A stretch of DNA of 64,000 nt from Terriglobia bacterium (GCA_965247425.1 OZ252023.1:1242917-1306916); one strand, 5' to 3'; counted from the first letter of the stretch, positions 1 to 52,014 are shown. A program made the numbers and translations. Notes: a model not told the origin generated them from the sequence alone.

Positions 1-1
1 G

Positions 2-1294
2 CAGCGGCACACCAGTCACCGGATCTACGAACGGATCCGGATGGAATTTCCGAAACATCCGATTGGGGAATCGACGGTTCGCCGGTATGTCGGGCGGCGG
101 AAGCGGGAGATGGGTTTCATCCGACAGGAGACGTTCGTGCCGCAAAGCTACGCCTGGGGTCAGGAAGCACAGATCGACTGGTACGAAGCCGTCGCGGAGT
201 TGGATGGCGAACGGCAGAAGCTCCAGGTTTTCTGTATGCGGAGCATGGGCAGTGGTGGCGCATTCCATCGAGCTTATCCTCGGGCGACAAAACAGGCATT
301 CCTGGAGGCTCATGAGTTGGGTTTCCGCTATTTTGCGGGGGTCTTCGGGGTGCTGCGTTATGACAACCTGACCAGCGCGGTGAAGAAGATTCTGCGGGGA
401 TACCGGCGTGTAGAGACCGAACGGTTCATCGCGTTTCGGTCGCATTGGAAGTTTCAAGCCGAGTTCTGCACACCCGGCGAGGGCCACGAGAAAGGCGGTG
501 TGGAAGGCGAAGCCGGATACTTCCGGCGCAATCACCTGGTACCGGTGCCGAAGGCGAAGGACCTGGCGGATCTGAATGCGCAGCTGCTGGCCGGTTGCCG
601 TGCCGATGAACGGCGCAAGATCGGCGATCGGGTCCAGACGGTGGGTGAAGGGATGCAGATCGAACAGCCCCATCTGCTCGCGTTATCGACCGAAGGGTTC
701 CCTCTGGCCGAGGACAGCTTTCCACGAGTCGATGGTAAGGGATGTGTACGGGTGCGTAACAACTTCTACTCCGCCCCCGTCAAGACCGGGACTGTGGTGC
801 GGGCGAGCGTTTTTCCGGCCTACGTGGAGGTCTGGCACGATGGCGGATGCGTGGCGCGGCATGAGCGAGGATATGGAAACGGCCAGCACTTCTTCAATCT
901 GGAACATTATCTGGAGGTGTTGGAGCGGAAGCCGGGCGCGCTGGCCGGGAGCAAGCCTCTGGAGCAATGGCGGCAACAGGGCCGATGGCCGAAAAGCTAT
1001 GACGAGTTCTGGCAGACGTTGATCGATCGCAACGGAAAACAGAATGGGACCCGCGCAATGGTGGAGTTGCTCCTACTGGGCCGGGAACATGGCTATAGCG
1101 AGCTGGATTCCGCATTCCAACAAGCCCTGCGCCTGGGATGCTCCGATGCCGCCGCGGCGCGCTACCTGATGACCGAGGCCCGATTCGACCGGCCGGCGGC
1201 GCCGCGACTGGAAGTGGCCGCACTACGCGCTTATGAGCGGCCCCTGCCGGAGGTGAATACTTACGATGCACTGCTCACTGCGGAGGTGGTCTAG
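2..1294 (+). CDS. istA: IS21-family transposase IstA, 5'-truncated by the window edge
   Basis: The reading frame is open from nt 2 with no upstream stop. The translation shows a DDE transposase core typical of IstA (QIDWYEA..., [11 protein letters not shown]). Its stop overlaps the start of the downstream istB, as in IS21. Confidence 0.85.
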
Positions 1295-2106
1295 TGTCCG
1301 CCACAGCCGGCGGGGTCGAACAGGCGGCGATTCAGCAGTACTGTAAAGCTCTCCGGACGCCCACGATCGGAACGCAGTTTGCGGCCATGGCCGAGCAGGC
1401 CCAGCGGGAAGAGCACACCTACACACGGTATCTGGAAGCCTTGCTGGCGATGGAAGTTGAAGAACGCGAACGGAACACCGTGGCCCGGCGGATTCAAGCC
1501 GCACGTTTCCCTCGAATGAAGACACTCGAGGACTTTGACTTCTCGCGGTCGAAGGTTCCAGCCAACCGGATCCGTGGACTCGCAGACGGTGGCTATTTAG
1601 AACACGCCGAACCTGTCGTCCTGATCGGGGAGTGTGGAACGGGCAAGACGCACCTGGCCACAGGACTGTGCGTGGCCGCTTGTCGGCAGAAGAAGCGGGT
1701 TCGCTTTACGACGGCCGCCGGCTTGATCAACGAGTTGGTCGAGGCCCAACACAACGACCAGTTCCGCCGGGTTCTGGCCCGATGGTTCCGATACGAGTTG
1801 ATTGCCATCGACGAAGTCGGCTATGTCCCGATGGCAGACCTCGGCGCCGAACTCCTCTTTCAAGTCATCTCGGATCGAGCCGAGCGGGCGACGGTGATCT
1901 TGACAACGAATCTGCCGTTCTCGGAATGGACCCAGGTGTTTCCCAATGTTCGGCTGTGCAAGGCGTTGCTGGACCGGATAACCGATCGCGCTCACATCAT
2001 CGAGACCGGAACCGAATCCTTCCGGTTTCGGCGCACGTTGGAGAAACGACAGAAACCACGGCATCCGCCTGGAAAGGAGAAACCCGCGAAACAAACCACG
2101 TCCTGA
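1294..2106 (+). CDS. istB: IS21-family helper ATPase IstB
   Basis: GTG start overlapping the istA stop. Walker [12 protein letters not shown] and Walker B IAIDEVGY are present, and the protein matches the IstB/DnaC-like ATP-binding family throughout. Confidence 0.9.
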
Positions 2107-2629
2107 GGGTCGGATCGCCGCGCGGTCGTCGATCCTGGGCGATCCTGGAAACGGAGTTTTTTCCCGAAAGAAAGAAAAAGAACCAAAAAGAAAGAAACGG
2201 AGGCCTGTGGAAGATGACGCGCTGTGGAAATCCTAAAAACCAGGATTCCCACAGCGCTTGGAAAAGCCTCGCCAAGGGCGCTCGGCTTTCCCACATCTAC
2301 AACACAGGCCCGACGGTAATTATCACTACTCGGAATTATTAACAGGAGGGGGTGGGCCAAATCAGACGATCAAAAGTGGGCCAGACCGGGTGGACAAACC
2401 CAGCATACCTCCATCGAGCTTCTTCGTTTGCTTCGCCTCGCTCTGTCTGCCCCAACCCCAGCCGACTCCAGCTGAACTGACTCGTTTCCCTGGTCTCCAC
2501 GCGCCTGCCTGACCCCAATCACCGGGCTGGACCCGCTACGGATACCTGTCTCTCGAAAATACCCCTCACTTCAAATTCCTCTCCCTCCTCGACCTTTTCC
2601 CTTCCAGAGCCCCTTCCAGACACTCCGTC

Positions 2630-2675
2630 CTCCCTGACTTCCGAAATGGCTGCTCCCTGACTTCCGAAATGGCTG
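2630..2675. repeat. Perfect 23-bp tandem direct repeat, two copies (ctccctgacttccgaaatggctg), upstream of the TonB-dependent receptor gene
   Basis: Two identical adjacent 23-mers seen directly, followed by AGTATACT-type palindromes at nt 2690-2730. This could be an operator or regulatory region. Confidence 0.5.
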
Positions 2676-2855
2676 TGCGGCGGCCCCTGTGCTAGTATAT
2701 GCTGCTCGAGTAGTATACTCTGGCCGAGCGAGAAGGTAGTACTCCGGCCGAGACGTTGACAGTCCAACCAGTAAATAAACTGGGTTCACTGTGAGATGTG
2801 GGACACATATTGTGTGAGTTCCGTTTTGGTGAATTCCACATATAGAGGGGGCATC

Positions 2856-5800
2856 ATGGAGAGGTTAAAACTGCAGTTCGTCCGGGAATCGCTTTGGGCG
2901 ATGTCTCTGGTGATCTGCATCAGCATTATGTCGTTTGGCCAGGTGTCCGGAACGATATCCGGCACCGTCGCGGACGTGACCGGAGCCGTTCTGCCGGGAG
3001 TCGAAGTCACCGCCACCAATGCTGGCACGGGTCTCGCCCGTACGGTAATCACGAACGAGAATGGTGTCTATGTCATCCCGGTGTTGCCCGTCGGCGGATA
3101 CCGGGTAGCGGCGGGCCTGCCGGGGTTCCAAACCGGAGTCCGGGAAGGTCTCGAGCTGAACACGGACGATCGCATCGTGGTGAATTTCGCGCTCGAGGTC
3201 GGCTCGATAACTACGGAGATCCTCGTGACCGAAGCAGCGCCGCTGATCCAGTCGGAGACTTCCGAGATCGGCGCCGTCATCGAAAACCAGCGGATCATAG
3301 AGCTACCGTTGAACGGCCGTGAGTTCCAGCAACTGGCGCTGCTGGTACCGGGCACCTTCACGCCGCCCGCAGGGTCCTCGAACGGCTTCCGCGGAGGGAT
3401 CTCGATTGCCGGTTCGCGGGAGAGGGACACGGGTTACTTCATCGACGGAATCAACATGGTGGATACGATCACCAGCTCGGTGATCTTCAGGCCGTCCGTC
3501 GACATGATCCAGGAATTCAAGGTCCACACGAGCCGGTATTCGGCCGAGGTCGGGCGCAACGCGGGTGGGCACATCACCGTGACGACGAAGTCCGGAACCA
3601 ACCAGGTTCATGGCGCTATTTTCGAGTTCGTCCGCAATGACATGTTCGACGCCAAGAACTTCTTCGATCCGCACGATGAGCCGATTCCCCCATTCACGCG
3701 GAACCAGTTTGGCGGGACGGTCGGTGGGCCCCTCATACAGGACAAGACATTCTTCCTCTTCAACGTCGAGGTGCTCCGCCTGAACCAGGCGATCACGAGG
3801 ACCGCAAGGGTACCGACTGTGGCCCTGAAGCGAGGAGATTTCTCCGGGCTGAGTAAACCGGTAATCGACCCGTTCACCGGTCAGCAGTTTCCGGGCAACA
3901 TCATCCCTGCAGATCGGATTTCCGCGATCGGTCAGAAAGCCGTCAACTGGTATCAGGACCCGAATCTCTCCGGCGCGCGGAACTTCGTGTCGACGCCGAG
4001 CGACACAAGGGATATCGATCAGTACACGATCCGAATCGATCATCGCTTCTCCGACAGCAACAACTTCTTCGGCCGGTTCTCCCGGAACGTCGACCTGGAA
4101 CTGGATCCGTTCGATCAATACAGCGGCATCACGAACTTGCCGCAGTTCGGGCGGTTGGACGATCAAACCGCCATCAGTATTTCACTGGTGGACAACCATG
4201 TATTCAATCCGAACCTGGTTGGGGAATTCCGCCTCGGTTACAACCGTTTCCACCAGTTCCGGTCGGTATACCCGGAGGAACAGCGAAACCAGACGTTGGA
4301 GCTCGGCATCACCGGAACGACCACGAACCCGGTCAATTTCGGTTTCCCGACCTTCAGCGTGAATGGGTTCGATACTCTCGGCAAGAACGGCAATCCGAGC
4401 GATCGGGATGACAATCACTACCAGGCGGTCGGCAACCTGACGTGGACGCGGGGCAACCACACCTTCAAGTTCGGCACCGATATATCCTGGCAGCTGAGCG
4501 ACCGGATCAACAACAGCAACAGCCGCGGCGTCTTTAGGTTTGACGGGCGATACACCGGGCACCCGCTGGCGGACCTGCTGATGGGATTCCCCCGCCAGAC
4601 CTCGAGAAGACTCGGGGAAAGCAAGGCGTATCCGTCCACCTGGGTCTTCGGCCACTTTCTGCAGGATGACTGGAAAATCACGCCCAATCTCACCCTGAAT
4701 CTCGGCGTCCGCTACGATTGGCAGACGAACCTCGTCAGCGAAAACAACCGGTTTAGCCGTTTCAATGTGGCAACCGGCAACATCGAGATCGTCGGGAAAG
4801 CGACCGATCTCCGGGATATTTCGCGGCCCGATAACCCCCTTTCCACTAACTTCAGCCCGGCAATACAGGCTCTGGCCGGGACCGTGACCTTTGCCGATCT
4901 CGGAAGGCGGCACATGACCACGCACGACCGCAACGACATCGCGCCTCGGATCGGTCTGGCCTACAGCATGTTCAATGATCGTGTGGTGCTCCGTACCGGA
5001 TACGGTGTCTATTTCAACGAGTACGAGCTGGGCGCCTGGAGCCGGATCGGCAACGACACGTATCCTTTCAAGGTCGACCAGTCCTTCAATGGCCACGCGA
5101 CAGTTCCGAATATCACGCTCGACGATGCCTTCCCGGACTCCATATCCAGGGCCACGATCTCCCCGAAGAGCATCCAGGACGCTCTTCCGACGATGTATGT
5201 CCAGCAGTACAACTTCGGATTGCAGATCCAGGCCATGTCGGACCTCATGATCGATGTCGGCTACGTCGGGAGCAAGACCACCAATTTGCCGGAAACGCGA
5301 AATCTGAACCAGGCGCGTCCGTGCGACCCCGCGGATTCGAACTGCGGTTCCGTCGCTTCGAGACGCCCCTTCCTGGGCTTTGGCAACATCAATCATTACG
5401 AAGGCACCGGCCTTGCGAATTTCAATTCGCTCCAGATGCGAGTCGAGAAACGCTACGTCGAGGGCCTGACATTGATGGGTGCCTACACCTGGTCCAAGTC
5501 CATCGACCTCAGCTCGGCCGGCGCTTCCGGAGGTCGGATCAGCATACAGGACCATTACAACATCCGGGAGGGTATGCGCGGCCCGTCGGGCTTTGATGCG
5601 CGTCAACGCCTCGTCATTAGCTACGTCTGGCATTTACCGTTCGGGTCGGGTGAACGCTTCCTGGGGAACGTCAATGGAGCTGCCAAATACGTCGTGAGCG
5701 GCTGGGAGATCTCCGGCATCCAGACATTCCAGAGCGGCCGCCCCTTCACCGTCCGGATACCCGGCGACAACAGCTATACCGGCGCCCGAAGGACGGATCG

Positions 5801-6140
5801 CCCCAATCAGATCAGCGATGCGCATCTGCCGAAAAGTCAGCAGACGATCGATCGATGGTTCGACACAGACGCCTACACCCTTCCGCCGCGCGGGACTTTC
5901 GGGAACGCCGGCCGGAACAACATCGAGGGACCCGGTCTGAACAACCTCGATTTCTCGATCATCAAGAACAACCGGTTTGGCGAATCGTACAACGTCCAGT
6001 TCCGTACGGAGTTCTTCAACACGTTCAACCACCCGAACTTCGATTTTCCGAATCGTGACTTCGGCACCAGCAACTTCGGTAAGATCTTTACGGCTCAGTT
6101 CTCGAGGCAGATTCAATTCGGGTTGAAGTTTATCTTTTAG
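2856..6140 (+). CDS. TonB-dependent receptor / outer-membrane protein with an N-terminal carboxypeptidase-regulatory-like domain (Acidobacteria type)
   Basis: ATG at 2856 with SD agaggggg. Signal peptide MSFGQVSG followed by GTISGTVADVTGAVLPGVEVTA. Beta-barrel-like Y/F-rich repeats and a C-terminus ending QFGLKFIF with terminal Phe. 1095 aa. Confidence 0.8.
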   Translation: MERLKLQFVRESLWAMSLVICISIMSFGQVSGTISGTVADVTGAVLPGVEVTATNAGTGLARTVITNENGVYVIPVLPVGGYRVAAGLPGFQTGVREGLELNTDDRIVVNFALEVGSITTEILVTEAAPLIQSETSEIGAVIENQRIIELPLNGREFQQLALLVPGTFTPPAGSSNGFRGGISIAGSRERDTGYFIDGINMVDTITSSVIFRPSVDMIQEFKVHTSRYSAEVGRNAGGHITVTTKSGTNQVHGAIFEFVRNDMFDAKNFFDPHDEPIPPFTRNQFGGTVGGPLIQDKTFFLFNVEVLRLNQAITRTARVPTVALKRGDFSGLSKPVIDPFTGQQFPGNIIPADRISAIGQKAVNWYQDPNLSGARNFVSTPSDTRDIDQYTIRIDHRFSDSNNFFGRFSRNVDLELDPFDQYSGITNLPQFGRLDDQTAISISLVDNHVFNPNLVGEFRLGYNRFHQFRSVYPEEQRNQTLELGITGTTTNPVNFGFPTFSVNGFDTLGKNGNPSDRDDNHYQAVGNLTWTRGNHTFKFGTDISWQLSDRINNSNSRGVFRFDGRYTGHPLADLLMGFPRQTSRRLGESKAYPSTWVFGHFLQDDWKITPNLTLNLGVRYDWQTNLVSENNRFSRFNVATGNIEIVGKATDLRDISRPDNPLSTNFSPAIQALAGTVTFADLGRRHMTTHDRNDIAPRIGLAYSMFNDRVVLRTGYGVYFNEYELGAWSRIGNDTYPFKVDQSFNGHATVPNITLDDAFPDSISRATISPKSIQDALPTMYVQQYNFGLQIQAMSDLMIDVGYVGSKTTNLPETRNLNQARPCDPADSNCGSVASRRPFLGFGNINHYEGTGLANFNSLQMRVEKRYVEGLTLMGAYTWSKSIDLSSAGASGGRISIQDHYNIREGMRGPSGFDARQRLVISYVWHLPFGSGERFLGNVNGAAKYVVSGWEISGIQTFQSGRPFTVRIPGDNSYTGARRTDRPNQISDAHLPKSQQTIDRWFDTDAYTLPPRGTFGNAGRNNIEGPGLNNLDFSIIKNNRFGESYNVQFRTEFFNTFNHPNFDFPNRDFGTSNFGKIFTAQFSRQIQFGLKFIF

Positions 6141-6149
6141 CTCGACGGG

Positions 6150-6185
6150 CCATCGGACGACGGGCGCCAGCCCGTCGTCCGATGG
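6150..6185 (+). terminator. Perfect 16-bp stem / 4-nt loop hairpin immediately after the TonB-dependent receptor stop
   Basis: ccatcggacgacgggc gcca gcccgtcgtccgatgg. There is no strong U-tract (ttgcagaaactctttt follows). Confidence 0.55.
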
Positions 6186-6289
6186 TTGCAGAAACTCTTT
6201 TGTAGGTCATTCCCATCCCTGCACTGCGGACCCCTCGTGTTTTACCGATCGGCCCGAGTCATGGCCGCCATGGAAGCAGCGGACTCCGA

Positions 6290-6690
6290 GGGCTGCGAAA
6301 CCGAACCACTCCAGAACGCCGCCTGCGACGGCAAGACTCTGCGACGAAGTATTTCGGAGGGCACAGCGACGTAGCCGGCGGTTGCCTGGTCTTTGCCAGA
6401 CGGGATGCGCTATTCGCACGTACCGAACGAGCGCGGCACATCCTTGGAGCGTCGCTTGCCCCCTTCAACTCGCGGCTGATCCCTCGTGGCCTTCGTACGC
6501 TTGCCTGCCGGATCGAGGCTCAGAGCGCCAACGCGCTCGCCGTGGCTCGAATGTTGGAAGGGCATCCGAACGTCCCTGCGGTCCACTAGCCGGGTCTCGA
6601 ATCCCATCCCGGTCACGAGATCGCGAAGGATCAAATGTCGTCGTTTGGCGCCATGCTGTCGTTCCGGGTCCGGGAGGGAAGGGAAGCGGC
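6290..6690 (+). pseudogene. Diverged 3' fragment (about 85-87% nt identity) of the PLP trans-sulfuration gene that is intact at 10059-11183
   Basis: Direct nucleotide alignment of nt 6300-6690 with nt 10620-10990. An internal stop is present (cactagccgg here versus cactatccgg in the intact gene). The fragment ends ...MSSFGAMLSFRVREGREAAL. Confidence 0.8.
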
Positions 6691-7110
6691 GCTGGGTTGG
6701 AGTTCAGGAACGGCCAGGATAGAGGCGGTTCTTCCCAGGAAGAATGCGTTTTCCAGGCAGGCGGCCGGAGGACGGGCCGACGAACAAGTTCTGGCGGCGA
6801 ACCTCGACATCGTCTTTCTGGTGACCTGTCTCGATGGTGATTACAACCCCCGGCGGATCGAACGATACGTCAACCTTGAATGGGAGAGTGGAGCGACACC
6901 GGTTCTGATCTTGAACAAAGCCGACCTGTCGGTCGACGTGGAGGCCGTCGTCCGTGAAGTGGAGCAGGTGACGTCTGGAGCCGCGATCCATGCCCTCAGC
7001 GCGAAAGAAGAGATCGGTCTCGACGTTTTCGAGGCCTACCTGACCCGGGGTCGCACGGCCGCTCTGCTGGGTTCATCGGGCGTGGGAAAGTCGACCATTG
7101 TCAATATTCT
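6690..7110 (+). pseudogene. Diverged internal fragment of rsgA (intact copy at 11444-12520), fused in-frame to the preceding PLP-gene fragment
   Basis: nt 6700-7110 align with nt 11690-12100 (IEAVLPRK...LLGSSGVGKSTIVN). The junction lies at a ctggg microhomology. Confidence 0.8.
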
Positions 7111-7334
7111 ACCTGTGGAACAACACGCCCGACGGGAGTGGTCGCGGAGCTGCAAGGGACACCGTCAGCCGGAATATCGGCTGGCAGGCGCGATTCCGCT
7201 GGATCCTGAAACCCGGGAACGACATCTTTGTGGTGCTGAATCAGAATTGGGTCGACAACCCTCTGCTGCCCGACAGAATCCAGGCACTGAACCGTCAGCT
7301 TTCGAGCAAGCTGGTGTTCACACGTCGGTTCTAG
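7098..7334 (+). pseudogene. C-terminal fragment of the DUF5916-like gene (intact copy at 7548-9773), internally deleted
   Basis: FYLWNNTPDGSGRGAAR joins directly to DTVSRNIGWQARFRWILKPGNDIF...KLVFTRRF. These match aa around nt 8910 and the last 60 aa of the intact gene. Confidence 0.75.
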
Positions 7335-7547
7335 TCGCGATTTGAAACGCTGTTGCCAAAAGCGTACAGTGGGTCGCGTGGCCGTGACGTCGTCGTAAGT
7401 TGCCAGATGCCTGGCCATTCAGGGGATTCCCTCTGATCAGCGGCTCGAGATCGTGCGGTTGTTCGGATGGGTCAGCGAACCGAGGAGTTTGGTTTCCCGT
7501 TGTCTTACCAGAGAATCACTTCCCAACGAAGCGGTGTTCCTTTGTGC

Positions 7548-9773
7548 GGCATGGTGGAGAGCTTCGGCCACACCGGCGTGTCGGCTGCCATCGTGCTTCT
7601 TTGTTCCTTCGCCTTGTCCGGGAATGGGGGCGCCCAGGCCCACCTGCCCCCCGAATACGAAGATCGCCGAATCGTTGAAGCGATCCTGCTGGGTGAGAAT
7701 GAATCCATCGACCTGGACGGTTTGCTGGACGAGGCCGTGTGGGATCGGGCAATTCCTGCTGTCGGTTTCATGCAGCAGGATCCCGACAACGGCAGCCCGG
7801 CCACGGAACCGACCGAGGTGCGCGTCGTGTATGGCGGAACGAGCTTGTATCTGGGGATCCTCTGTCTAGACTCGGATCCGGCGGCGCTGCTGGGCAACCA
7901 GATGCAACGGGACCAGCCGTTGGAGGCCGACGATCGCTTTATGTGGGCGATGGATCCGTTCCTCGACGAACGAAGTGGATATTTCTTCGAGATCAATCCG
8001 TCGGGGGCGATGGGAGACGGTTTGATCAATGTGTCCCCCGGGGGCGGCTTCCGAGCCAACAAAGCTTGGGACGGGATCTGGACCGCCAGGGTCCGACGGA
8101 CGGACATCGGGTGGCAGGCCGAGATCGAGATTCCGTTCGCTACGCTGAATTTCGATCCGAACGTCTCAGCCTGGGGCGTGAACTTCCAACGGACCGTCCG
8201 ACGGAAGAACGAAGAAAGCCGCTGGAACGGGTACTCGCGGAACCAGGGATTGATGCAGATGAGCGCAGCGGGTCTCGTGGTCGGACTCGAGGAACTCGAC
8301 CAAGGCCTGGGTCTCGAGCTGAAGCCCTACCTGACGGGCAGCATCACCGACGGGCCGGTCTCGGGCGCCGCCCCGGTTTACCGGGGTGACGCGGGTTTCG
8401 ATCTCTCTTACAGCGTGACGCCTGAACTTCGAGCCAAGTTCACGTTGAACACGGATTTCGCCGAAATCGAAGTTGACGATCGCCGGATCAACCTCACGCG
8501 TTTCCCGCTCCGGTTCCCCGAGAAACGTGATTTTTTCCTGGATGGGTCCAACTTTTTCGATCTTTCGACGGCTGGCGTTACGCCGTTCTTCAGCCGCCGA
8601 ATCGGTCTCGACGCGGACGGTAACCCGCAACGAATTGTGTATGGAGTGAAGCTCACGGGCAAGGTCGGCGCCCAGGACATCGGTGTGTTGCAAGTACGAA
8701 CGGCCGATTCCGGCAACAATTCGGGAGAAGACTTTTCAATCGTTCGCCTGAAACGCCCCTTCTGGGCAGAGTCTCATGTCGCGATGATCTATACGCGACG
8801 ATCTCGGCTGGTGACGGGCGCGGCTGTTCTCCAGACGGCGGGTGCGGAAATTCAACTCTCGACCAGCCGCTTCGCTGGGGACCGCAACCTGTCTCTTACC
8901 GGATTCTACTTCTGGAACACCACGCCCGAGGGAGGCGGCAACGGAGCTGCCCGCGGCTTCCGCCTCCACTACCCGAACGACACCTGGCAGCTGAACCTCT
9001 CAGTCCGCGAGCTGCAAGACAATTTCGATCCTGCAGTGGGATTCACGCCGCGTCGCGGTTTCCGGCGTGCGAACCCGGAGGCGTTCTTCGCGCCTCGGCC
9101 GTCCGACCATCCCTGGATCCGACGATTCAGGTTTGGATCCGACGCACAGTTTTTGATGGACACCAAAAACCGTCTGGTTACACGCATCTTTGACGTGACG
9201 GTATTCGAGATGGAGTTGCATTCACAAGACACTTTTCTCTTCAAGGCTGTCCCCAGCTTTGAACGGCTTGAAAGGGATTTCGAAATCAGCCCGGGTGTGG
9301 TTTTGTTTGAAGGCGCCCAGTACAACTTCACCAGATACAGCGTGGAGATCGACAGCGCCGATCGTCGAAAAGTGGCAGCCTCCGCCGTACTGGAATGGGG
9401 CAACTTCTTCTCCGGAACGCGCCGTGAGTTTTCTCTGGACCTCAGGATCCGACCCCGTCCCGGCCTCTTTGCCAGCGTCGGCGGGGAATTCAATCGGGTA
9501 GAACTGCCCGAAGGAAATTTCTCGACAAGCCTTGTTCGATCCGAGCTCAACACGCAGTTCGGACCGTGGGTCTCGCTTGCTAACCGATTGCAGTACGACA
9601 CGGTCAGCCGGAACATCGGCTGGCAGGCTCGATTCCGGTGGATTCTGAAACCCGGGAACGACATCTTTCTCGTCCTGAATCAGAATTGGGTCGACAATCC
9701 TCTCCTGCCGGACAGAATCCAGACCTTGAACCGTCAGCTTTCCAGCAAGCTGGTGTTCACACGTCGGTTCTAG
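7548..9773 (+). CDS. Secreted DUF5916 / CBM9-like-domain protein (predicted outer-membrane or hydrolase-associated family)
   Basis: Signal peptide MVESFGHTGVSAAIVLLCSFALSG. CBM9-like N-terminal block (DGLLDEAVWDRAIPAVGFMQQDPDNGSP...). Beta-rich C-terminal region. The longer ORF from nt 7467 is an alternative start. Confidence 0.5.
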   Translation, partial: GMVESFGHTGVSAAIVLLCSFALSGNGGAQAHLPPEYEDRRIVEAILLGENESIDLDGLLDEAVWDRAIPAVGFMQQDPDNGSPATEPTEVRVVYGGTSLYLGILCLDSDPAALLGNQMQRDQPLEADDRFMWAMDPFLDERSGYFFEINPSGAMGDGLINVSPGGGFRANKAWDGIWTARVRRTDIGWQAEIEIPFATLNFDPNVSAWGVNFQRTVRRKNEESRWNGYSRNQGLMQMSAAGLVVGLEELDQGLGLELKPYLTGSITDGPVSGAAPVYRGDAGFDLSYSVTPELRAKFTLNTDFAEIEVDDRRINLTRFPLRFPEKRDFFLDGSNFFDLSTAGVTPFFSRRIGLDADGNPQRIVYGVKLTGKVGAQDIGVLQVRTADSGNNSGEDFSIVRLKRPFWAESHVAMIYTRRSRLVTGAAVLQTAGAEIQLSTSRFAGDRNLSLTGFYFWNTTPEGGGNGAARGFRLHYPNDTWQLNLSVRELQDNFDPAVGFTPRRGFRRANPEAFFAPRPSDHPWIRRFRFGSDAQFLMDTKNRLVTRIFDVTVFEMELHSQDTFLFKAVPSFERLERDFEISPGVVLFEGAQYNFTRYSVEIDSADRRKVAASAVLEWGNFFSGTRREFSLDLRIRPRPGLFASVGGEFNRVELPEGNFSTSLVRSELNTQFGPWVSLANRLQYDTVSRNIGWQARFRWILKPGNDIFLVLNQNWVDNPLLPDRIQTLNRQLSSKLVFTRRF

Positions 9774-10042
9774 TGGTCCGCGCCAGATATAGCGGTACTA
9801 GATTTCGGAGTGCAACGGTACCGGATTTGGGGGAGCGACGATGAGCCAATGCTTCGACATTGTGAGGAGGAGCGACGCCAAAGACGGTGCCGTTCCGCCC
9901 GAACCCGTAGGGCCGATGGAGGTTGCCATTCACGAACGCTAAACCGTCGAAAGCTCACACTCACCACACGATGGATCTCACGCATCGGTCCGCTCGCAAC
10001 CTCCTTCGGAGATAGTATCGCTATATCTGGCGCGGACCACTA
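9772..10042. repeat. 271-bp element bounded by perfect 24-bp terminal inverted repeats (tagtggtccgcgccagatatagcg / cgctatatctggcgcggaccacta); MITE-like
   Basis: Inverted repeats at 9772-9795 and 10019-10042 seen directly. The element fills the intergenic gap between the DUF5916 gene stop and the PLP gene. Confidence 0.7.
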
Positions 10043-10058
10043 GAGTAAGCTAGCCGAG

Positions 10059-11183
10059 ATGAAATTCGAGACACGCGCCGTGCACACGGGTCTGACCGTC
10101 GATGAAACCACCGGCGCCATCGCACCCCCGATTCATCTGTCAACGACATTTGGCCGTGATGAGGCGAGTCAGCCGATCGGAGGCCATACCTATATTCGGG
10201 AGTCCAACCCGAATCAGTCACGTCTCGAGCAGACGGTCGCCGATCTGGAGGGCGGGGAGGCCGGTCTTGCCTTCGCGTCCGGAATGGCCGCGGGTGCGGC
10301 GGTCTTCCAAGCGATGGAGCCGGGAACACATATGGTGATGCCCGACGATGTGTACTACGGTTTCGGCATCGCCGCTCGGGAGTTCTGCTCGAAATGGGGG
10401 ATCGCCTCCGACGCCGTACCGATGGACGATCTCGATCGGCTCGCCGCCGCGATTCGTCCCGAGACCGGTTTGATCTGGATCGAGACGCCATCGAATCCAC
10501 TCATGAAGATCGTCGACATCCGCAAGATCGTCGCGCTGGCCCGCAAGGCGGACGCGGTCGCTATTGTCGACAACACCTTTGCCACACCTGCCCTTCAGCG
10601 TCCAATCGAGTGTGGCGCGGACATTGTCCTTCATTCGGCGACCAAGTACTTCGGCGGCCATAGCGATGTGGCCGGCGGTTGCCTGGTGTTCGCCCGCCGG
10701 AGTCCATTGTTCGAGGCGACCGAGCGGGCGCAACACATCCTCGGAGCGTCGCTGTCTCCGTTCAACTCGTGGCTGATCCTTCGCGGCCTGCGGACTCTTG
10801 CATGCCGAATGCGGTCTCAGAGCGCCAATGCGCTCGCGGTGGCCCGCATGCTGGAAGGGCATCCGAATGTCCGTACGGTCCACTATCCGGGCCTCGGATC
10901 CCATCCGGGCCACGAGATCGCGAAGAATCAAATGTCTTCCTTCGGCGCCATGCTGTCGTTCCGGGTCCGGGAGGGAAGGGAAGCCGCCCTGGCTATTGTG
11001 GGGCGTTCGTCTCTTTTTGTTCGCGCGACCTCGCTCGGTGGCGTGGAAAGCCTGATCGAACATCGGGCAACGAGTGAAGGAGCGGATGCGATCAGTCCGG
11101 AGGATCTCATCCGCTTGTCGATCGGACTCGAACACCCCGACGACCTCATTGAAGATCTCGGTCGCGCGTTGTGTCCGGTGTGA
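10059..11183 (+). CDS. PLP-dependent trans-sulfuration enzyme (cystathionine gamma-synthase / beta-lyase / methionine gamma-lyase family)
   Basis: The PLP-lysine motif SATKYFGGHSDV is present, and the sequence matches the Cys/Met-metabolism PLP family throughout. 374 aa. Confidence 0.85.
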   Translation: MKFETRAVHTGLTVDETTGAIAPPIHLSTTFGRDEASQPIGGHTYIRESNPNQSRLEQTVADLEGGEAGLAFASGMAAGAAVFQAMEPGTHMVMPDDVYYGFGIAAREFCSKWGIASDAVPMDDLDRLAAAIRPETGLIWIETPSNPLMKIVDIRKIVALARKADAVAIVDNTFATPALQRPIECGADIVLHSATKYFGGHSDVAGGCLVFARRSPLFEATERAQHILGASLSPFNSWLILRGLRTLACRMRSQSANALAVARMLEGHPNVRTVHYPGLGSHPGHEIAKNQMSSFGAMLSFRVREGREAALAIVGRSSLFVRATSLGGVESLIEHRATSEGADAISPEDLIRLSIGLEHPDDLIEDLGRALCPV

Positions 11184-11455
11184 ATACCCGACTCCCCCTT
11201 CCGGGGTGTTTTCGTGTTACCGTTGCTTAGGGGACAACGACACTTCGTTCCGTTCCCACCACTTTATGACTTCAGCCATTGCCCTCTAAGAAGGAAACAG
11301 TCTCCAGGACGGTCCGGTCTTGCCGGACCCGTGTGTGTGGAGAGTCGTTTCCTTCCCCACTTCTTCTTTCCTGAGCCCGTGTTTGTTGCGCGACGTCAGC
11401 CGCGGACTCACGCGGTCTTACCGAATTCCTTACTTCTGATCGTTTGGTGGGAGAG

Positions 11456-12520
11456 ATGCGGGTGAACCTCGAAGACATAGGCTGGAATTCAGTCTTTAAA
11501 TCTCATTTTGAAAAATTGGAGCGGGCGGAACTCACGCCGGCTCGCGTGGTCCGTCAGGACCGGCATCGCTACCTGATGTTTTCCGAGGCCGGAGAAGTGA
11601 TGGCGGAGGTGTCGGGCCGGATGCGACATGACATCCAGAGAACAACGGAGTTTCCGGTCGTCGGAGACTGGGTGGTGCTTGAATGGACCCCCGAGTGGGT
11701 CCGGATCGAGGCGGTGCTGCCCAGGAAGAGCGCGATCTCCAGGCAGATGGCCGCGGGAGGAGGCAGAGAACAGATTCTGGCGGCGAACCTGGACACGGTA
11801 TTCCTGGTCTCCGGACTCGATGGTGACTACAACCCTCGCCGGATCGAACGATTCGTAAATCTTGGATGGGAGAGTGGAGCGACTCCGGTTCTGATCCTGA
11901 ACAAAGCTGACTTGTCGGTCGATGTCGATGCCGTGGTCCGTCGAGTGGAGGAATTGGCGCCTGGAGTCGCCGTTCATACCCTCAGCGCGAAAGAGCGGAT
12001 CGGTCTCGACGCCTTGGAGACGTACTTGACGCGGGGCCGCACGGCCGCCCTGCTCGGATCATCGGGCGTCGGAAAGTCGACCATCGTCAATTGTCTTCTC
12101 GGAACCGACCGACAGGAGGTGTTTGAGGTTCGCGAAGACGATTCCCGCGGTCGCCACACAACGGTGCGACGGGAATTGTTCGTGCTTCCCTCGGGCGGGG
12201 CGATCATCGACACACCCGGCCTGCGTGAGGTCCGTCTGTGGGGGGAGGAAGAAACTCTCGCGACGACTTTCGCCGACATCGAAAAATTGGGTATCGACTG
12301 CCGGTTCGGGGACTGCCGTCACGACGCGGAACCCGGATGCGGGGTCCTGGCCGCGCTCAAGCGGGGAGACCTGGAGCCCGGCCGGTACGAAAGTTACCGG
12401 AAGATGCAGAAGGAACTGGAGCATGTCGCAAGTCTCGAGGTCCCACACGAAGTCCGTGATCGAGACCGGCGCTTCTCTAAGATGGTGCGGAACGTCATCC
12501 GTGAGAAGAAGAAGGATTAA
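11456..12520 (+). CDS. rsgA: Ribosome small-subunit-dependent GTPase A (RsgA/YjeQ)
   Basis: LILNKADL, GSSGVGKSTIVN, DTPGLREV and a C-terminal zinc finger (CRFGDCRHDAEPGC). The start is uncertain: TTG 11444, ATG 11456 or GTG 11462. Confidence 0.85.
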   Translation: MRVNLEDIGWNSVFKSHFEKLERAELTPARVVRQDRHRYLMFSEAGEVMAEVSGRMRHDIQRTTEFPVVGDWVVLEWTPEWVRIEAVLPRKSAISRQMAAGGGREQILAANLDTVFLVSGLDGDYNPRRIERFVNLGWESGATPVLILNKADLSVDVDAVVRRVEELAPGVAVHTLSAKERIGLDALETYLTRGRTAALLGSSGVGKSTIVNCLLGTDRQEVFEVREDDSRGRHTTVRRELFVLPSGGAIIDTPGLREVRLWGEEETLATTFADIEKLGIDCRFGDCRHDAEPGCGVLAALKRGDLEPGRYESYRKMQKELEHVASLEVPHEVRDRDRRFSKMVRNVIREKKKD

Positions 12521-12526
12521 ATCCCT

Positions 12527-12634
12527 CAACGCAAAGGCGCGAAATCGCAAAGAACGCAAAGTTGTTTATATGGGATCCCGGAGTCCCGAAAAACGAAATG
12601 TGCGACATTTGCGTCTTTGCGTTTTTGCGTTGAA
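12527..12634. repeat. REP/MITE-like palindromic element, family 3, copy 1 (arms caacgcaaaggcgcgaaatcgcaaagaacgcaaag / tttgcgtctttgcgtttttgcgttgaa)
   Basis: Imperfect inverted arms flanking about 45 bp. The element begins 7 nt after the rsgA stop. Related copies lie at 24469, 57547 and 32740. Confidence 0.6.
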
Positions 12635-12653
12635 CTCCCCCGTCGGGGTACGA

Positions 12654-13352
12654 CTAGCTGGTCTCGGCGGCTGGAAGGCTCAGGCGGCGTATGACGACGA
12701 TAGCCACGATGATGGAGATGACGACTCCCGCAACCAGGGGCCAGACCAGCCATGGGAAAGCCACGAAGAGTTCCACCGAGATGTACGACTGGACATAGGC
12801 TATCGGGGCCATCCCAAGCGCCGTGCCCAGCATCACCGCGGACACGGGAATTGTCGTGATGCCGGCGGCGTATGAAACGATGTCGGACGAAGTGAGAGGA
12901 TTGACCCGCAGGAGAGCGATCATGATGAAACCGCGTCGGCGCAGCAGGTCTTCGTACCTGGCCAGGCTTTCGGGGCTGAAAAAATCCCGGGTCCAGTTCC
13001 GGCCGACGAAGGTTCGCATCAGCAGGCAGGCGATGCCGGCGCCGAGCGTGTTTCCCAGTAGCGTCAACGTCCCGCCCCAGAAGCCGCCGAACAGGACGCC
13101 CCCGGGCAGATAGAAGATCGTTCCCGGGATTGGAGCCACGACCACCTCGACAATGACGACCACGAGGTACAAGAGCGGACCCACTGGCCCCCAGCTTCTG
13201 AAGAAGGTCTGAAGCGCCGCCAGCTTGGATTCGGCCTCCATGTCGAAGTCCAGCATCAAGCTGACGATACCGCCGTTCCAGTACGACCAGGCCAACACCG
13301 CAGCGACGAGCGCGAGGCCCGCAACACCTAAAAGTCCAACCTTTCGCTGCAT
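12654..13352 (-). CDS. DedA / TVP38-TMEM64 family membrane protein
   Basis: Multi-transmembrane protein with a glycine-rich re-entrant motif (GTIFYLPGGVLFGGFWG) typical of the DedA/SNARE-associated family. Confidence 0.6.
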   Translation of the reverse strand: MQRKVGLLGVAGLALVAAVLAWSYWNGGIVSLMLDFDMEAESKLAALQTFFRSWGPVGPLLYLVVVIVEVVVAPIPGTIFYLPGGVLFGGFWGGTLTLLGNTLGAGIACLLMRTFVGRNWTRDFFSPESLARYEDLLRRRGFIMIALLRVNPLTSSDIVSYAAGITTIPVSAVMLGTALGMAPIAYVQSYISVELFVAFPWLVWPLVAGVVISIIVAIVVIRRLSLPAAETS

Positions 13353-13429
13353 GGCCCTCCTTCGAAGCTGATCAGGAACGATCTCAGAAAATCACACTGC
13401 GATCTTCCGAGCAAAGCTTTTGAGTCCGA

Positions 13430-16163: not shown

Positions 16164-17780
16164 ATGTCGTCGAGAACCAAGTTGATCGCGCTAGCCGTTG
16201 TCGCCGTCATGTTGCCGACAATGATTCTCTCGGTGATTCAGTATCGCTCGTTGCTCCAGCTTCAGAGCACGACGAAGCTGGCGGCTCAGGAGAGTCTGAG
16301 ACAAGTGTTGTACGGCCTGTCGGGCCGGGCCGAAGAAGAGTTGACCTGGATCGCCGAGCAAGCCCTCGGAACCCTCGACACCGAGTCTCTGTCCAGGGAA
16401 AACATTCTGGAACTCGAGAGGCACTTCGAGGCGGTTCGGACGGCGAATCCGGCAATCGACAGGCTCTTCCTTTCCTTCGTGTGTGGCTGCGAGAGTTTCG
16501 GTGTGGTCACCTCCGCGAACGGAAGCCGAAGGTTCGAGAACGAGAGAGCGGCCAGGAGGCTCGAAGTGGTCCAGGTTCAGGACCTGTTCGAAAGTGCCCG
16601 CACGGACGCCTATCCGGACGGACGGGTGGGCAGAGACTTTCTGTTCGCACACCTGTCCGATTGCAGAGGGCCATCCTGCCGTCAGGGCGACGATTTTGAA
16701 ACATATGTGTTCTACCCTTTGATCAATCAGGGTGGGGAAGAACTGGGCTTCGCGGCCATGTCGCTGAAAACGAAATACATCACCGATGAGCTGTTCGCCC
16801 GCGTTCTACCGGCAAAGCTTGATCGCGACCTGGCCATCGGGATCTTCGATGAGAACCATTCCGAACTCTATGCCACCCAGAAGGCACGTCAGACGTGGGA
16901 AGTCACCGTGCCCCTGGCACCCGTGTTTCCCCGGTGGAGCCTGGGAGCAGGCTTCAGGAACACGACGATCGAGGGCGCGGCGCAGCAGCAGTTCCAGGAG
17001 AGCCTGGCCCTGTCCTTGTTCGTTCTGTCATTGCTGGTTCTGGGCATTATCCTGACGCTCCGTGCGACAGCTCGAGAGATCCGGCTTGCCGAAGCCAAGT
17101 CCACTTTTGTGTCGAATGTCTCCCACGAACTGAAAACTCCCCTGGCCCTGATCCGGCTGTTTGCAGAGACGCTTGAACTGGGGCGCGTGCGGTCGTCGGA
17201 CAAGGCGCATGAATACTATCGAATCATCAGCAACGAAAGCAGACGACTGACGCAGTTGATCAACAATATCCTGGACTTTTCACGAATCGAAGCCGGTCGC
17301 AAAGAGTATCAGTTTGAAACGACCGATGTCGCCCAGGTCGTGCGGGAAGTCGTCGAGACGTATCAGTATCCCCTTGAAAACGCCGGTTTCAAAATAGTCA
17401 CCGTAATTGAATCCGACCTCCCGCCCGTCAAGATCGACCGGGATGCGATGTCGCAAGCCGTCCTCAACCTGGTGAACAATGCCGTCAAGTACTCCGCTGA
17501 GATCAAACGGATCGACATCCGCGTACGTTCAGCCGAGGGCCACATCGCCGTTGAGGTGGCCGACCAGGGCATCGGCATTCAAACCTCCGAACAGGAGAAG
17601 ATTTTCGAAAAATTTTACCGGATCAGTACCGGTCTGGTGCATGACCGGAAGGGGAGCGGTCTGGGCCTGGCCCTGGTCGACCATATCGTCAAGGCCCATC
17701 GTGGCGAGATTGTCGTAGAGAGCAAGCTGGGCAAGGGGAGCCGTTTTACCGTCCTGATTCCGCTGGCCGCTGACGGCTAA
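16164..17780 (+). CDS. Sensor histidine kinase (two transmembrane helices, a periplasmic sensor domain, HisKA and HATPase_c)
   Basis: H-box SNVSHELKTPLA. N, G1 and G2 boxes (NAVKYS, DQGIGI, GSGLGLALV). Confidence 0.85.
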   Translation: MSSRTKLIALAVVAVMLPTMILSVIQYRSLLQLQSTTKLAAQESLRQVLYGLSGRAEEELTWIAEQALGTLDTESLSRENILELERHFEAVRTANPAIDRLFLSFVCGCESFGVVTSANGSRRFENERAARRLEVVQVQDLFESARTDAYPDGRVGRDFLFAHLSDCRGPSCRQGDDFETYVFYPLINQGGEELGFAAMSLKTKYITDELFARVLPAKLDRDLAIGIFDENHSELYATQKARQTWEVTVPLAPVFPRWSLGAGFRNTTIEGAAQQQFQESLALSLFVLSLLVLGIILTLRATAREIRLAEAKSTFVSNVSHELKTPLALIRLFAETLELGRVRSSDKAHEYYRIISNESRRLTQLINNILDFSRIEAGRKEYQFETTDVAQVVREVVETYQYPLENAGFKIVTVIESDLPPVKIDRDAMSQAVLNLVNNAVKYSAEIKRIDIRVRSAEGHIAVEVADQGIGIQTSEQEKIFEKFYRISTGLVHDRKGSGLGLALVDHIVKAHRGEIVVESKLGKGSRFTVLIPLAADG

Positions 17781-18051
17781 GCAGCCTGTGGCGGGACTCT
17801 TGAGGGTCGCGCGCAGGGGGATTCGGGTTTCAGGCGCGAAGAGAGGAGCGGAGCGATGCTTTGTCATCGTGACCGACGAACGACAAAGCCTGAGACCCGA
17901 AGACCCCTGCGCCCGACGGGTTACGACGGCATCGGGTCATCTGCGGCGTTGCCACTCATCATCGATGGGTAGCATCGACGTCGTCGTGGCGCCGGATATC
18001 TGGCCCGATGACGCTCGTAACGCGACCCTCGAGAGTTCCGCCACAGGCTGC
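17781..18051. repeat. MITE-like element family 1, copy A (271 bp, roughly 31-bp terminal inverted repeats gcagcc(t/c)gtgg...gggtcgcg)
   Basis: Starts immediately after the histidine-kinase stop codon and ends 25 nt before the response-regulator start. About 85% identical to the copies at 49206-49520 and 51740-52011. Confidence 0.8.
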
Positions 18052-18075
18052 TAATAAATGGAGGAAGAGAAGCCA

Positions 18076-18756
18076 ATGCAGAAAGTTCTTGTTGTCGAAG
18101 ACGAGCCCGACATGATCCTGGGATTGAAGGACAACCTGGAGTACGAGGGATACGACGTGGACATTGCGAGCGACGGAGAGGCAGGTATCGAGCGGGCGAG
18201 TTCGGGCCGGCCGGACCTGATTCTGCTCGACGTGATGCTTCCCAAAATGAGTGGGCTGGATGTGTGCCGGAGCCTTCGAACCCAGGGTGCGGACATGCCG
18301 ATCATCATGTTGACCGCTCGCAGCCAGGAGGTGGATACCGTCGTGGGTCTGGAAGTGGGTGCGGACGACTATGTCACGAAGCCATTCAGTATCAAGGAAT
18401 TGCTGGCGCGCGTTCGAGCTCATTTGCGCCGTCGGTCGAATCAGGTGATCGAGGTCGACAACTACTCGTTCGGCGACGTCCGGCTGTTCTTCAAGAAGCA
18501 TCAAGCGTCGAAAGCGGGCGTGCCGATCGATCTGTCTCCACGCGAATTCGACATGATGAAGTACTTCATCCAGCGCAAGGGAGAAGCCATCACCCGTGAT
18601 GAGCTGTTGAACGACGTCTGGGGCTACACAAATTTTCCGCTGACACGTACCGTGGACAATCATGTTGCGAAGCTGCGCCAGAAGATCGAAGACGTTCCAT
18701 CGGAGCCGAAGCATGTGATCACCGTCCATCGGGTGGGTTACAAGTTCGTCGAATAA
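18076..18756 (+). CDS. OmpR/PhoB-family winged-helix response regulator
   Basis: Receiver domain (VLVVEDEPD...LILLDVMLP...) and a C-terminal trans_reg_C domain (VDNHVAKLRQKIE...ITVHRVGYKF). ATG 18076 is preceded by a ggagg SD. Confidence 0.85.
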   Translation: MQKVLVVEDEPDMILGLKDNLEYEGYDVDIASDGEAGIERASSGRPDLILLDVMLPKMSGLDVCRSLRTQGADMPIIMLTARSQEVDTVVGLEVGADDYVTKPFSIKELLARVRAHLRRRSNQVIEVDNYSFGDVRLFFKKHQASKAGVPIDLSPREFDMMKYFIQRKGEAITRDELLNDVWGYTNFPLTRTVDNHVAKLRQKIEDVPSEPKHVITVHRVGYKFVE

Positions 18757-18771
18757 ACCGAGGTGAACACC

Positions 18772-19410
18772 ATGTCCAACTTGAACCGCACCCTTGTTGC
18801 GACGATGTTGCTGGTCGGTCTATCACTTGTTGTCATCGGGCAGAGTGCGAGAGATCGGAACCGCGACCGCTGGCAGCGTCCTGACGAGGTCATGGACGAG
18901 TTGGGTCTCGAATCGGGCAGTGCTGTTGCCGACATCGGTGCCGGTCGCGGCTATTTTACTTACAAGTTTGCGGAGCGGGTCGGCCCGGCGGGCCGGGTGT
19001 ACGCCGTCGACATTCAGCAGGAACGGCTCGATCAGATCCGTCGTGGGTTGTCCCAACGGGGTTTTCGGAACGTGGAACTGATTCACGGCGAGCCGGACGA
19101 CCCCGGTCTGGCTCCAGACTCCGTGGAAGCCATTTTGATCGTCAACGCTTATCACGAGATGCGCGATTTTGATGAGATGCTGCAGGCGATGCACCAGGCC
19201 CTGAAACCCGGAGGCGTGCTCGGGATCATTGACGCGGAGGCGACCGAAGGACGACAACGCAGCCGATATCAGCGCGATCACGAGATTCCCGAATCACTCA
19301 TCAAGGAAGATGCCGCACGGAACGGCTTCGACTTTCTACGGAAAGGTAAAGGCTTCGTTTCAAGCGGTGACGACTGGTATTTTCTGATCTTCGAGGCACT
19401 CTCCCCTTGA
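18772..19410 (+). CDS. Class I SAM-dependent methyltransferase with an N-terminal signal or anchor sequence
   Basis: Motif I VADIGAGRGYFT. ATG 18772 with SD aggtg. Hydrophobic N-terminus LVATMLLVGLSLVVIG. Confidence 0.7.
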   Translation: MSNLNRTLVATMLLVGLSLVVIGQSARDRNRDRWQRPDEVMDELGLESGSAVADIGAGRGYFTYKFAERVGPAGRVYAVDIQQERLDQIRRGLSQRGFRNVELIHGEPDDPGLAPDSVEAILIVNAYHEMRDFDEMLQAMHQALKPGGVLGIIDAEATEGRQRSRYQRDHEIPESLIKEDAARNGFDFLRKGKGFVSSGDDWYFLIFEALSP

Positions 19411-52011: not shown

Positions 52012-52014
52012 TGG

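Follow-up and report, generated by a model that had tools for sequence, protein, structure and literature searches.

Tandem duplications and deletions mediated by microhomology arise spontaneously and are common in bacteria, and several more specialised systems also copy, displace or carry gene fragments. In Escherichia coli icd, e14 and phage 21 integrate in the 3' end of the gene, supply a replacement end and displace the old one, while ISEcp1 and ISCR insertion sequences (ISs) mobilise adjacent genes by one-ended transposition. Diversity-generating retroelements (DGRs) have repeat mismatches confined to template adenines and a reverse transcriptase nearby, and silent-cassette systems (pilS, vls, msp2) comprise arrays of truncated, promoterless surface-gene variants and a mosaic expressed copy. 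Homology-facilitated illegitimate recombination (HFIR) is documented in Acinetobacter, Streptococcus pneumoniae and Pseudomonas stutzeri according to a review (PMC6382021), which summarises the primary studies (de Vries & Wackernagel 2002; Prudhomme et al. 2002; Meier & Wackernagel 2003) and describes the illegitimate end as being joined at segments of 3-10 bp during natural transformation. For the Staphylococcus aureus lpl cluster, the account in PMC2568036 describes recombination units that span the 3' end, spacer and 5' end of tandem paralogues. Here we describe a mosaic of diverged gene fragments at positions 6338-7335 of a 64,000-nucleotide (nt) stretch of a Terriglobia bacterium genome (GCA_965247425.1, OZ252023.1:1242917-1306916; the whole stretch is called the window), which lies just upstream of three intact genes, A, B and C, that its pieces resemble. 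The mosaic resembles the outcome of ordinary microhomology duplication and deletion combined with recombination with diverged DNA at a cluster of tandem paralogues, and it does not belong to any dedicated system. It is probably the non-functional debris of a second, partial copy of the part of the locus that runs from A2, a paralogue of A, to C.

The mosaic was delimited by a BLASTN search with window positions 6000-7500 as the query against the whole 64 kb. This resolved window 6338-7335 into four collinear pieces on the same strand, matching the downstream genes at 79-92% identity (E values of 1e-5 to 1e-109), and so bore out an earlier sequence-only reading in which fragments of downstream-type genes stand in the order B'-C'-A'. 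Self-BLAST of all 64 kb gave no further copies of the A, B or C genes. The pieces and the intact genes are as follows (handles beginning with L denote related sequences, introduced below).

Positions 6338-6695, plus strand: B', 3' fragment of a diverged gene for a Cys/Met-metabolism pyridoxal phosphate (PLP) enzyme, equivalent to B 10635-10992 (82.4% identity, ungapped, E 1e-101).
Positions 6688-7105, plus strand: C', internal piece of a diverged gene for the GTPase RsgA (rsgA), equivalent to C 11674-12091 (82.3% identity).
Positions 7106-7157, plus strand: A' piece 1, start of an 872-nt duplicate of the A2 3' end (92.5% identity to L001 A2 4303-4355).
Positions 7158-7335, plus strand: A' piece 2, last 178 nt of an A2-type 3' end with its stop codon (96.0% identity to L005 A2).
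Positions 7336-7547, plus strand: spacer of 212 nt, homologous to the A2-A intergenic region (72.7% identity to L007 5074-5262; 100% to L005).
Positions 7467-9773, plus strand: A, intact DUF5916 gene (Pfam).
Positions 10059-11183, plus strand: B, intact PLP enzyme gene (Pfam Cys_Met_Meta_PP, E 1e-122).
Positions 11444-12520, plus strand: C, intact rsgA (Pfam RsgA_GTPase, E 4e-46).

Pfam thus assigned the three downstream genes to the families that had been proposed for them (DUF5916, Cys/Met-metabolism PLP enzyme and RsgA). At the protein level B' and B are identical at 103/119 amino acids, and B' contains an in-frame TAG at 6587-6589 that it has in common with L005. The BLASTN match of C' covers 6717-7105 (C 11703-12091, 82.3%, E 9e-109), and comparison with the L007 orthologue of C moves its left end to about 6688. 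B' and C' consequently overlap in the microhomology GGCGCTGG (6688-6695), which contains the ctgg of the ctggg noted in the sequence-only reading, and the join keeps the frame as that reading had stated. The C'/A' join has a microhomology of at most 2 nt and does shift the frame, with an open reading frame (ORF) at 7098-7334 in another frame. Against the adjacent A gene, A' piece 1 aligns at 7106-7153 (8903-8950, 79%, E 1e-5) and A' piece 2 matches 9597-9774 (91.6%, E 4e-69); the spacer that follows has a promoter-like site at 7342-7370. The earlier figure of about 85% identity holds in that the pieces are diverged and not 100% identical, but identity is not uniform: B' and C' each reach 82%, A' piece 1 has 79% and A' piece 2 has 92%. 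The start of the mosaic, formerly placed at 6290, also had to be revised: 6290-6337 is not B' but the end of a separate segment, U2, which accompanies the TonB-receptor gene lying upstream.

Relatives of the locus were found by scanning reference genomes with protein A. L001 (OZ253536.1), the 6.24-Mb chromosome of a Terriglobia metagenome-assembled genome (MAG), is ~99% identical to window 2659-7158. L001/L005 (ERZ26694896) and L006, a 1.17-Mb contig from another sample (ERZ25068966), have identical junctions and the same TAG at ~99% identity; L005 and L006 are 99.99% identical across 16 kb and differ by two IS copies downstream. All B'/C' junctions are common to the window and L005, and the ~99% identity of the flanks is unbroken across them. 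The window comes from a metagenome assembly, and related strains do share samples (L010 and L022, for example, come from one), which is what could suggest an assembly chimera or a strain-mixing artefact. This reading is barely credible, since three assemblies made from different samples, with two structural versions among them, have identical junctions, the flank identity runs continuously over them, and junction microhomologies of 0-8 nt are far under any assembler overlap. The mosaic is not an assembly artefact, and the earlier claim that it is no assembly duplicate stands, because two further long-read assemblies, both made from other samples, contain the same junctions and TAG.

The origin of A' becomes apparent from a second intact DUF5916 gene, A2, which lies upstream in L005 (3408-5636) and has 81% nucleotide identity to A. 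The position of A2 was read in relatives; synteny between the window and L005 breaks within window 1-2675. In L005, A' is an uninterrupted 872-nt copy of a DUF5916 3' end (L005 10472-11343) that is 96% identical to A2 and 82% identical to the adjacent A over its length, so that the tail of A2 is present twice (4766-5636 and 10472-11342), and the second copy is followed by the normal A2-A spacer. A' is thus the 3' end of A2 and not a copy of the adjacent A, as had been supposed. The ~645 nt between A' pieces 1 and 2 are kept in L005 and L006 and deleted in the window alone; the internal deletion described in the sequence-only reading is real, but it is a later change confined to the window. A' piece 2 is 92.7% identical to the A' of L005 itself and forms an island of A2-like variants within flanks of ~99% identity, which is probably a conversion tract.

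Comparison with syntenic loci in relatives, a check put forward with the sequence-only reading, supplied the ancestral order as well as the same junctions elsewhere. L007 has the order TonB-dependent receptor (TBDR)-amidohydrolase-A2-A-B-C-VTT with no insert, and L010 has the same order with A and B separated by an IS and a reverse transcriptase. These arrangements show amidohydrolase-A2-spacer-A-B-C-VTT as the ancestral order. In the lineage of the window, as read in L005, the order is A2, a 40-nt VTT fragment, ~340 nt of a segment called U1, the TonB-receptor segment, B', C', A', spacer and A-B-C-VTT. The source of the VTT fragment lies downstream in the window.

Positions 13112-13151, plus strand: VTT source stretch, inside the VTT-domain gene (12654-13352, minus strand), 95% identity to L001 5174-5213 and L005 5637-5676.

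In L005, L006 and L024 the 40-nt VTT copy immediately follows the A2 stop codon, and U1 (L005 5677-6016) had no similarity to any of the sequences compared. That B'-C'-A' should precede A-B-C had seemed paradoxical, since a single tandem duplication could not produce it. With A' recognised as the displaced tail of A2, the puzzle disappears: the true order is A2, then B'-C' joined to the A2 tail, spacer and A-B-C.

B' and C' have a different history from A'. They stand in natural gene order, with the 710 nt between them gone, in frame, at GGCGCTGG, and together they are a single stretch of a B-C operon that is deeply diverged (82% nucleotide identity). Differences at codon positions 1/2/3 number 12/8/43 between B' and B, 15/7/32 between C' and C (ungapped 321 nt) and 3/0/12 between A' piece 2 and A. 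The differences of B' and C' are thus biased to third positions, as between intact orthologues, which speaks against the earlier view that these pieces are copies of the adjacent B and C; they have not drifted in place and would therefore derive from a long-functional, diverged B-C copy. In a three-taxon comparison, changes specific to B' (7/6/28) fall at positions 1 and 2 in a proportion of 0.32, against 0.29-0.39 for intact B orthologues, and because of this match B' was probably functional for most of its branch. Changes specific to A' relative to A2 alleles (9/3/8) give 0.60, against 0.17-0.33 for intact A2 orthologues, and the decay of A' since its formation is estimated at ~2.3% and looks neutral. 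The B' counts fit a mixture of ~8 neutral and ~33 constrained changes, which would put its silencing at about the same time as that of A'. We infer that B'-C' were working genes, ~15% diverged from today's B-C, until about the creation of A'. Between the window and L005, B'/C' show 7 differences, 6/7 of them at codon positions 1 or 2 (small numbers), so that no present selection on B'/C' is apparent. The codon-position profiles indicate that all pieces of the mosaic now evolve neutrally.

No intact B or C of the B'-C' type (type 2) was found among 5.8 billion proteins, where the best matches have 88% (B') and 83% (C') amino-acid identity and are no nearer than the adjacent B and C genes. An exact 25-mer spanning the B'/C' junction had no match among Joint Genome Institute (JGI) metagenome contigs, and viral contigs yielded no relative of C' and no match to the U2 tail.

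These comparisons also bear on whether B' and C' could be in-place relics of an ancient block duplication (A2-B2-C2 followed by A-B-C) that made A2 and A as well. The divergences are similar (A2/A 81%, B'/B 82%, C'/C 82%), the interval between A2 and A holds B' and C' in the order that such a block predicts, and in the protein tree B' falls outside the whole group of window and L007 B sequences (218/300 bootstraps). However, the C' branch, with 17 changes, is shorter than those of the two other taxa compared (32 and 42), and in the protein tree C' tends to fall inside the orthologues, beside L007 C (150/300) or beside the window clade (62/300). Together with the constrained B' branch, this is unlike what a long-dead outgroup paralogue would show. 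The succession of A2 stop codon, spacer and A is moreover common to L007 and L010 and is found directly after A' in the window, so B2-C2 would have to have been lost before the lineages split, and A' would be left unexplained. We consider an ancient block duplication improbable.

The probable reading, a second and partial copy of the A2-to-C part of the locus, can be set out as a series of steps. An illegitimate join of mid-rsgA (the equivalent of 12091) to A2 position -872 would be the signature junction of a partial tandem duplication, and it would have placed the B-C copy between intact A2 and the displaced A2 tail. As expected of such a duplication, the junction runs, in direct orientation, from a downstream point back to an upstream point, and the A2 tail stands on both sides. 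The locus resembles known cases of partial tandem duplication and deletion with pseudogene decay in this head-to-tail junction (C 12091 to A2 -872), in later deletions at microhomologies of 3-8 nt and in the neutral decay of the redundant copy. It differs from them in that the redundant B-C is 18% diverged and its differences are shaped by selection. Copies identical at formation are not what we found: A' differs from A2 by ~4% in a neutral-like manner, whereas B'/C' differ from B/C by ~18% in a selection-shaped one. Given this unequal divergence and the imprint of selection on the larger part of it, a simple duplication must be combined with foreign DNA or with later allelic replacement. The inserted B-C copy would have been a deeply diverged allele or xenologue (82% nucleotide identity) that was functional until about the creation of A'.

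Two routes could have brought this about. In the first, HFIR, the duplication would have involved incoming DNA of a diverged relative, paired by homology on one side and illegitimately joined on the other. The likeness would lie in diverged DNA with homologous pairing on one side and a short join on the other, foreign sequence ending up next to its resident homologue; here, the diverged B-C adjoins homologous A2 or A. The key junction has a microhomology of at most 2 nt, however, the donor lineage is unsampled, and the hosts are uncultured Terriglobia MAGs, in which HFIR is not separable from duplication with allele replacement. In the second route, an ordinary tandem duplication would have been followed by the overwriting of the intact downstream A(3')-B-C by homologous recombination, a kind of overwriting that is visible at the locus in the breakpoint within A between the window and L005/L010. 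The present comparison does not separate the two routes. By either, the mobile receptor cassette would then have replaced everything from the A2 stop codon to B position 10634. B' was fused to C' by the in-frame loss of 710 nt at GGCGCTGG, and the window alone later lost ~645 nt of A'. Repeated duplication and deletion, or recombination with a paralogous locus, had been proposed from the sequence. Deletions, joins at microhomology and the involvement of a paralogue are all retained here, but the pieces are not copies of three adjacent genes.

Several points weigh against this reconstruction. The source lineage is hypothetical, with no intact type-2 B or C in the proteins searched, and the C'/A' microhomology is below the 3-10 bp described for HFIR. 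It accounts neither for the 40-nt VTT fragment nor for the 340-nt U1 that follow the A2 stop codon. On the right, L022 and L024 are filled differently, with A2 joined at -421 to a DUF433 remnant, and they have a different spacer allele, a state that needs a second independent event or extra steps. Finally, with A' ~4% from A2 and B'/C' ~18% from B/C, a single donor needs very uneven divergence.

A single replicative template switch, of the kind described as microhomology-mediated break-induced replication or fork stalling and template switching (MMBIR/FoSTeS), could in principle have stitched all segments together in one step. The chain of 40 nt of VTT, 358 nt of B, ~410 nt of C, 872 nt of A2 and a 3.6-kb distant cassette would suit it, with all segments in direct orientation and joined at microhomologies of 0-8 nt. 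One-time copying is, however, at odds with the unequal divergence of A' (~4%) and B'/C' (~18%, under selection), and L022, L024 and the window deletion share only some of the junctions, which points to a stepwise build-up. With these intermediate allelic states and the unequal divergence, single-step template switching was rejected as very unlikely.

The left side of the mosaic is bounded by the receptor cassette, beyond which lies the end of an IS.

Positions 2687-6337, plus strand: TonB-dependent receptor cassette, comprising the promoter region, the gene (2796-6140), a terminator hairpin (6150-6185) and the U2 tail (6191-6337).
Positions 2406-2675, plus strand: right end of a DDE-type IS, 92% identity to the same end of the IS that L024 carries intact.

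Pfam recognised OMP_b-brl_4 and CarboxypepD_reg in the receptor. U2 is the 147-nt tail of the cassette, and B' adjoins it on the right, with the junction at 6337/6338. The native receptor locus is seen as Ldh-Mo-oxidoreductase-TBDR in L023 (94% nucleotide identity), L015 (86%) and L019 (84%). The right edge of the cassette is identical in L005, L022 and L024, while L020/L025 provide a third context in which it is 10 nt shorter and lies beside a truncated HNH-like ORF; Pfam gave no match for the ORFs in the L020 flanks, which are unlike any sequences compared. The receptor gene is thus a single-copy relocated cassette found in three genomic contexts with a near-constant right edge. The left junction of B' is, by this comparison, the edge of a mobile unit rather than a deletion scar. 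At the other edge, the 23-nt terminal repeat of the IS, CTCCCTGACTTCCGAAATGGCTG, is doubled at ~2630-2675, right beside the cassette, and a 14-nt solo copy, TTCCGAAATGGCTG, stands at the same place in L005 and L022. The terminal repeat is found at the left edge of the cassette in the variants of the A2-A locus and not in L020/L025. The IS is intact in L024 (7891-9813) only, and the window has its right end alone.

Such a boundary raises the alternative that B'-C' is the captured flank of the receptor cassette, which would once have been inserted in the B gene of another species at 10634/10635. A later mobilisation, overshooting the right end by one-ended transposition as in ISEcp1 or ISCR, would have taken along 1.46 kb of the host's B-C. 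B' begins exactly where U2 ends, and elsewhere that end of U2 is joined to unrelated truncated genes, namely the DUF433 remnant (L022/L024) and the HNH-like ORF (L020/L025). An IS terminal repeat beside the left edge of the cassette in the A2-A locus variants also fits, and capture accounts for foreign B'/C' (82%) next to a local A' (96%). The likeness to ISEcp1 and ISCR extends to a single cargo gene, the TonB receptor, in at least three contexts with near-constant ends and with the IS terminal repeat at one edge. Unlike in those systems, target-site duplications were not identified, and the only intact IS is that of L024, L005 and L022 having no IS body. Furthermore, U2 followed by a longer or intact B-C was not found in the contexts searched, right edges differ by 10 nt between contexts, and transposition into A2 predicts a short target duplication rather than an 872-nt duplicate beside an intact A2. 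Flank capture is therefore an unlikely origin of B'-C'.

A broader version of this idea, which we regard as doubtful, treats the A2-A interval as a landing pad for an IS-driven TonB-receptor cassette that captures the flanks of its last host gene. An unsampled species would then have contributed B'-C' from its B-C operon as a 'transduced flank', the DUF433 remnant would be a second flank so captured, and the HNH-like stub of L020/L025 would mark a further insertion site. If true, this would amount to a one-ended, flank-capturing transposition system that moves an outer-membrane receptor gene among Acidobacteriota genomes. Upstream of the DDE IS end, window 41-2106 also holds an IS21-type pair, IstA (recognised by the Mu-transposase C-terminal domain) and IstB.

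Site-specific integration of the icd/e14 type was likewise compared with the locus. Here, too, an intact A2 and a displaced 3' duplicate, A', bracket an inserted segment. The insert, however, has no integrase, the TonB receptor being its sole long gene, the length of the duplicate varies (872 nt in L005, 421 nt in L022/L024), and it is A', rather than the copy inside A2, that runs into the native spacer. Lacking a recombinase and a constant duplicate length, site-specific integration was rejected.

The B'/C' fusion creates an ORF that the sequence-only reading had singled out, and which ORF calling and public annotation both contain.

Positions 6635-7345, plus strand: chimeric ORF of 236 amino acids (aa), with 20 aa of the B' tail, ~135 aa of C' and then out-of-frame A'.

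Pfam finds a partial RsgA_GTPase in it (132/174 profile positions), and the RsgA fragment has neither the N-terminal part nor anything past the P-loop region. Exact-protein look-ups of the ORF and of B gave no match; the ORF itself was then found by protein homology search. It is listed as a gene in public annotation (P0001), and the L005 version (P0002), present on L005 and L006, has 192 aa and a different C-terminus. The comparison between relatives gave no sign of purifying selection, on small numbers, and indicates that the chimeric ORF is a likely pseudogene. The annotated 'gene' at 6635-7345 should accordingly not be counted as a new RsgA-like protein.

A function for the fragments, either of A' as a silent donor cassette for conversion of the DUF5916 genes of the outer membrane or of the ORF as a truncated RsgA-like protein, was considered as well. 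The island in A' piece 2 (93% identity within ~99% flanks, with A2-like variants) fits conversion among the 3' ends of A2, A' and A, and the ORF is open in two genomes and annotated as a gene. But A' is neutral and has been shortened by 645 nt in the window, and there is one cassette and no array. As for the ORF, its C-terminus differs between the window and L005, recent B'/C' differences are mostly non-synonymous, the RsgA domain is incomplete and no promoter-like site was found ahead of the ORF. Function is highly improbable in either form. The locus is not a silent-cassette system, with a single A' copy that is neutral and partly deleted and with B'/C' coming from cytoplasmic housekeeping genes; the conversion-like island is the only hint of such behaviour. 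DGR activity was rejected, as mismatches hit all four bases about equally and on either copy, and no reverse transcriptase was found by ORF calling and Pfam in window 2800-13400. A literature search for DUF5916 returned no papers.

Variation among relatives is not limited to the B'-C'-A' insert. L024 has the order A2, VTT fragment, U1, IS, TBDR with U2, DUF433 remnant, last 421 nt of A2, spacer type II and A; L022/L021 are as L024 on the right side and carry 159 other nucleotides on the left. There are five states of the A2-A interval (empty, two fillings, one plus an IS, and one plus a further deletion), and the region is a hotspot of recombination and insertion. The A gene of the window is itself recombinant. 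Identity to L005 is ~99% to about 8950; beyond this point, in the remainder of A and in B and C, it is 86-96%. A is L005-like to ~8945 and L010-like from ~8970. Upstream of this breakpoint A differs by ~1% from L005 and ~9% from L010, and downstream of it the last 800 nt of A differ at 2 sites from L010 and by ~5% from L005. The breakpoint at 8945-8970 is no more than ~50 nt away from the point that corresponds to the start of A'. As in the S. aureus lpl cluster, as that is described in PMC2568036, segments are exchanged between tandem paralogues, with 'A2 tail + spacer + A head' behaving as one block and the spacer occurring as types I and II. Unlike in that description, unrelated DNA has been captured here too, in the form of the receptor cassette, the B-C fragments and the DUF433 remnant.

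Smaller insertions add to the diversity of the surrounding genes, among them an element at the A stop codon.

Positions 9775-10042, strand not assigned: element resembling a miniature inverted-repeat transposable element (MITE), 268 bp, with 28-32-bp terminal inverted repeats (TGGTCCGCGCCAGATATAGCG...) and CTAG on both sides.

This element is absent from L005 and L010, and an 86% copy stands at the same place in L024. A MITE-looking family occurs at 17780-18053, 49205-49524 and 51736-52012 (275-320 bp, 81-86% alike, ~32-35-bp terminal inverted repeats), with a 77% copy in a related genome (L003 18980-19253). Between B and C, the window has 278 nt (11184-11461) that are 79% identical to the B-C spacer of L007; L005 and L010 have no such stretch, and B and C overlap there by 4 nt. 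In the stretches L010 5378-8439, L011 103-993 and L012 3711-4875, a 296-aa RVT_1 reverse transcriptase lies upstream of B, just behind a 100-aa ORF in L010 and L012, and in L010 a DDE transposase stands between A and that pair. L005 has two DDE transposase genes between C and the VTT gene (16247-19794) that are absent from L006. In L022 (4343-6572) the A2 DNA is full-length, and A2 forms two ORFs (579 + 143 aa) in L021 and L022, which suggests a pseudogene or a consensus error of a low-coverage long-read assembly. Other short diverged repeats of the window (70-82%) pair 42439-42525 with 59606-59693, 22855-23010 with 43682-43837 and 32366-32465 with 34048-34150. Rfam gave no match at E <= 1 in 5900-12700, and a structured RNA is not supported there.

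There is no new kind of biology at this locus; the type of event is ordinary, and its documentation is unusually full. Genomes from long-read metagenomes preserve five allelic states of one locus, so that its junctions can be put into chronological order and the decay of one fragment dated relative to that of another. The locus shows a TonB-receptor gene moving between loci, and deep allelic divergence together with active recombination at a metabolic and ribosome-biogenesis operon of soil Terriglobia.

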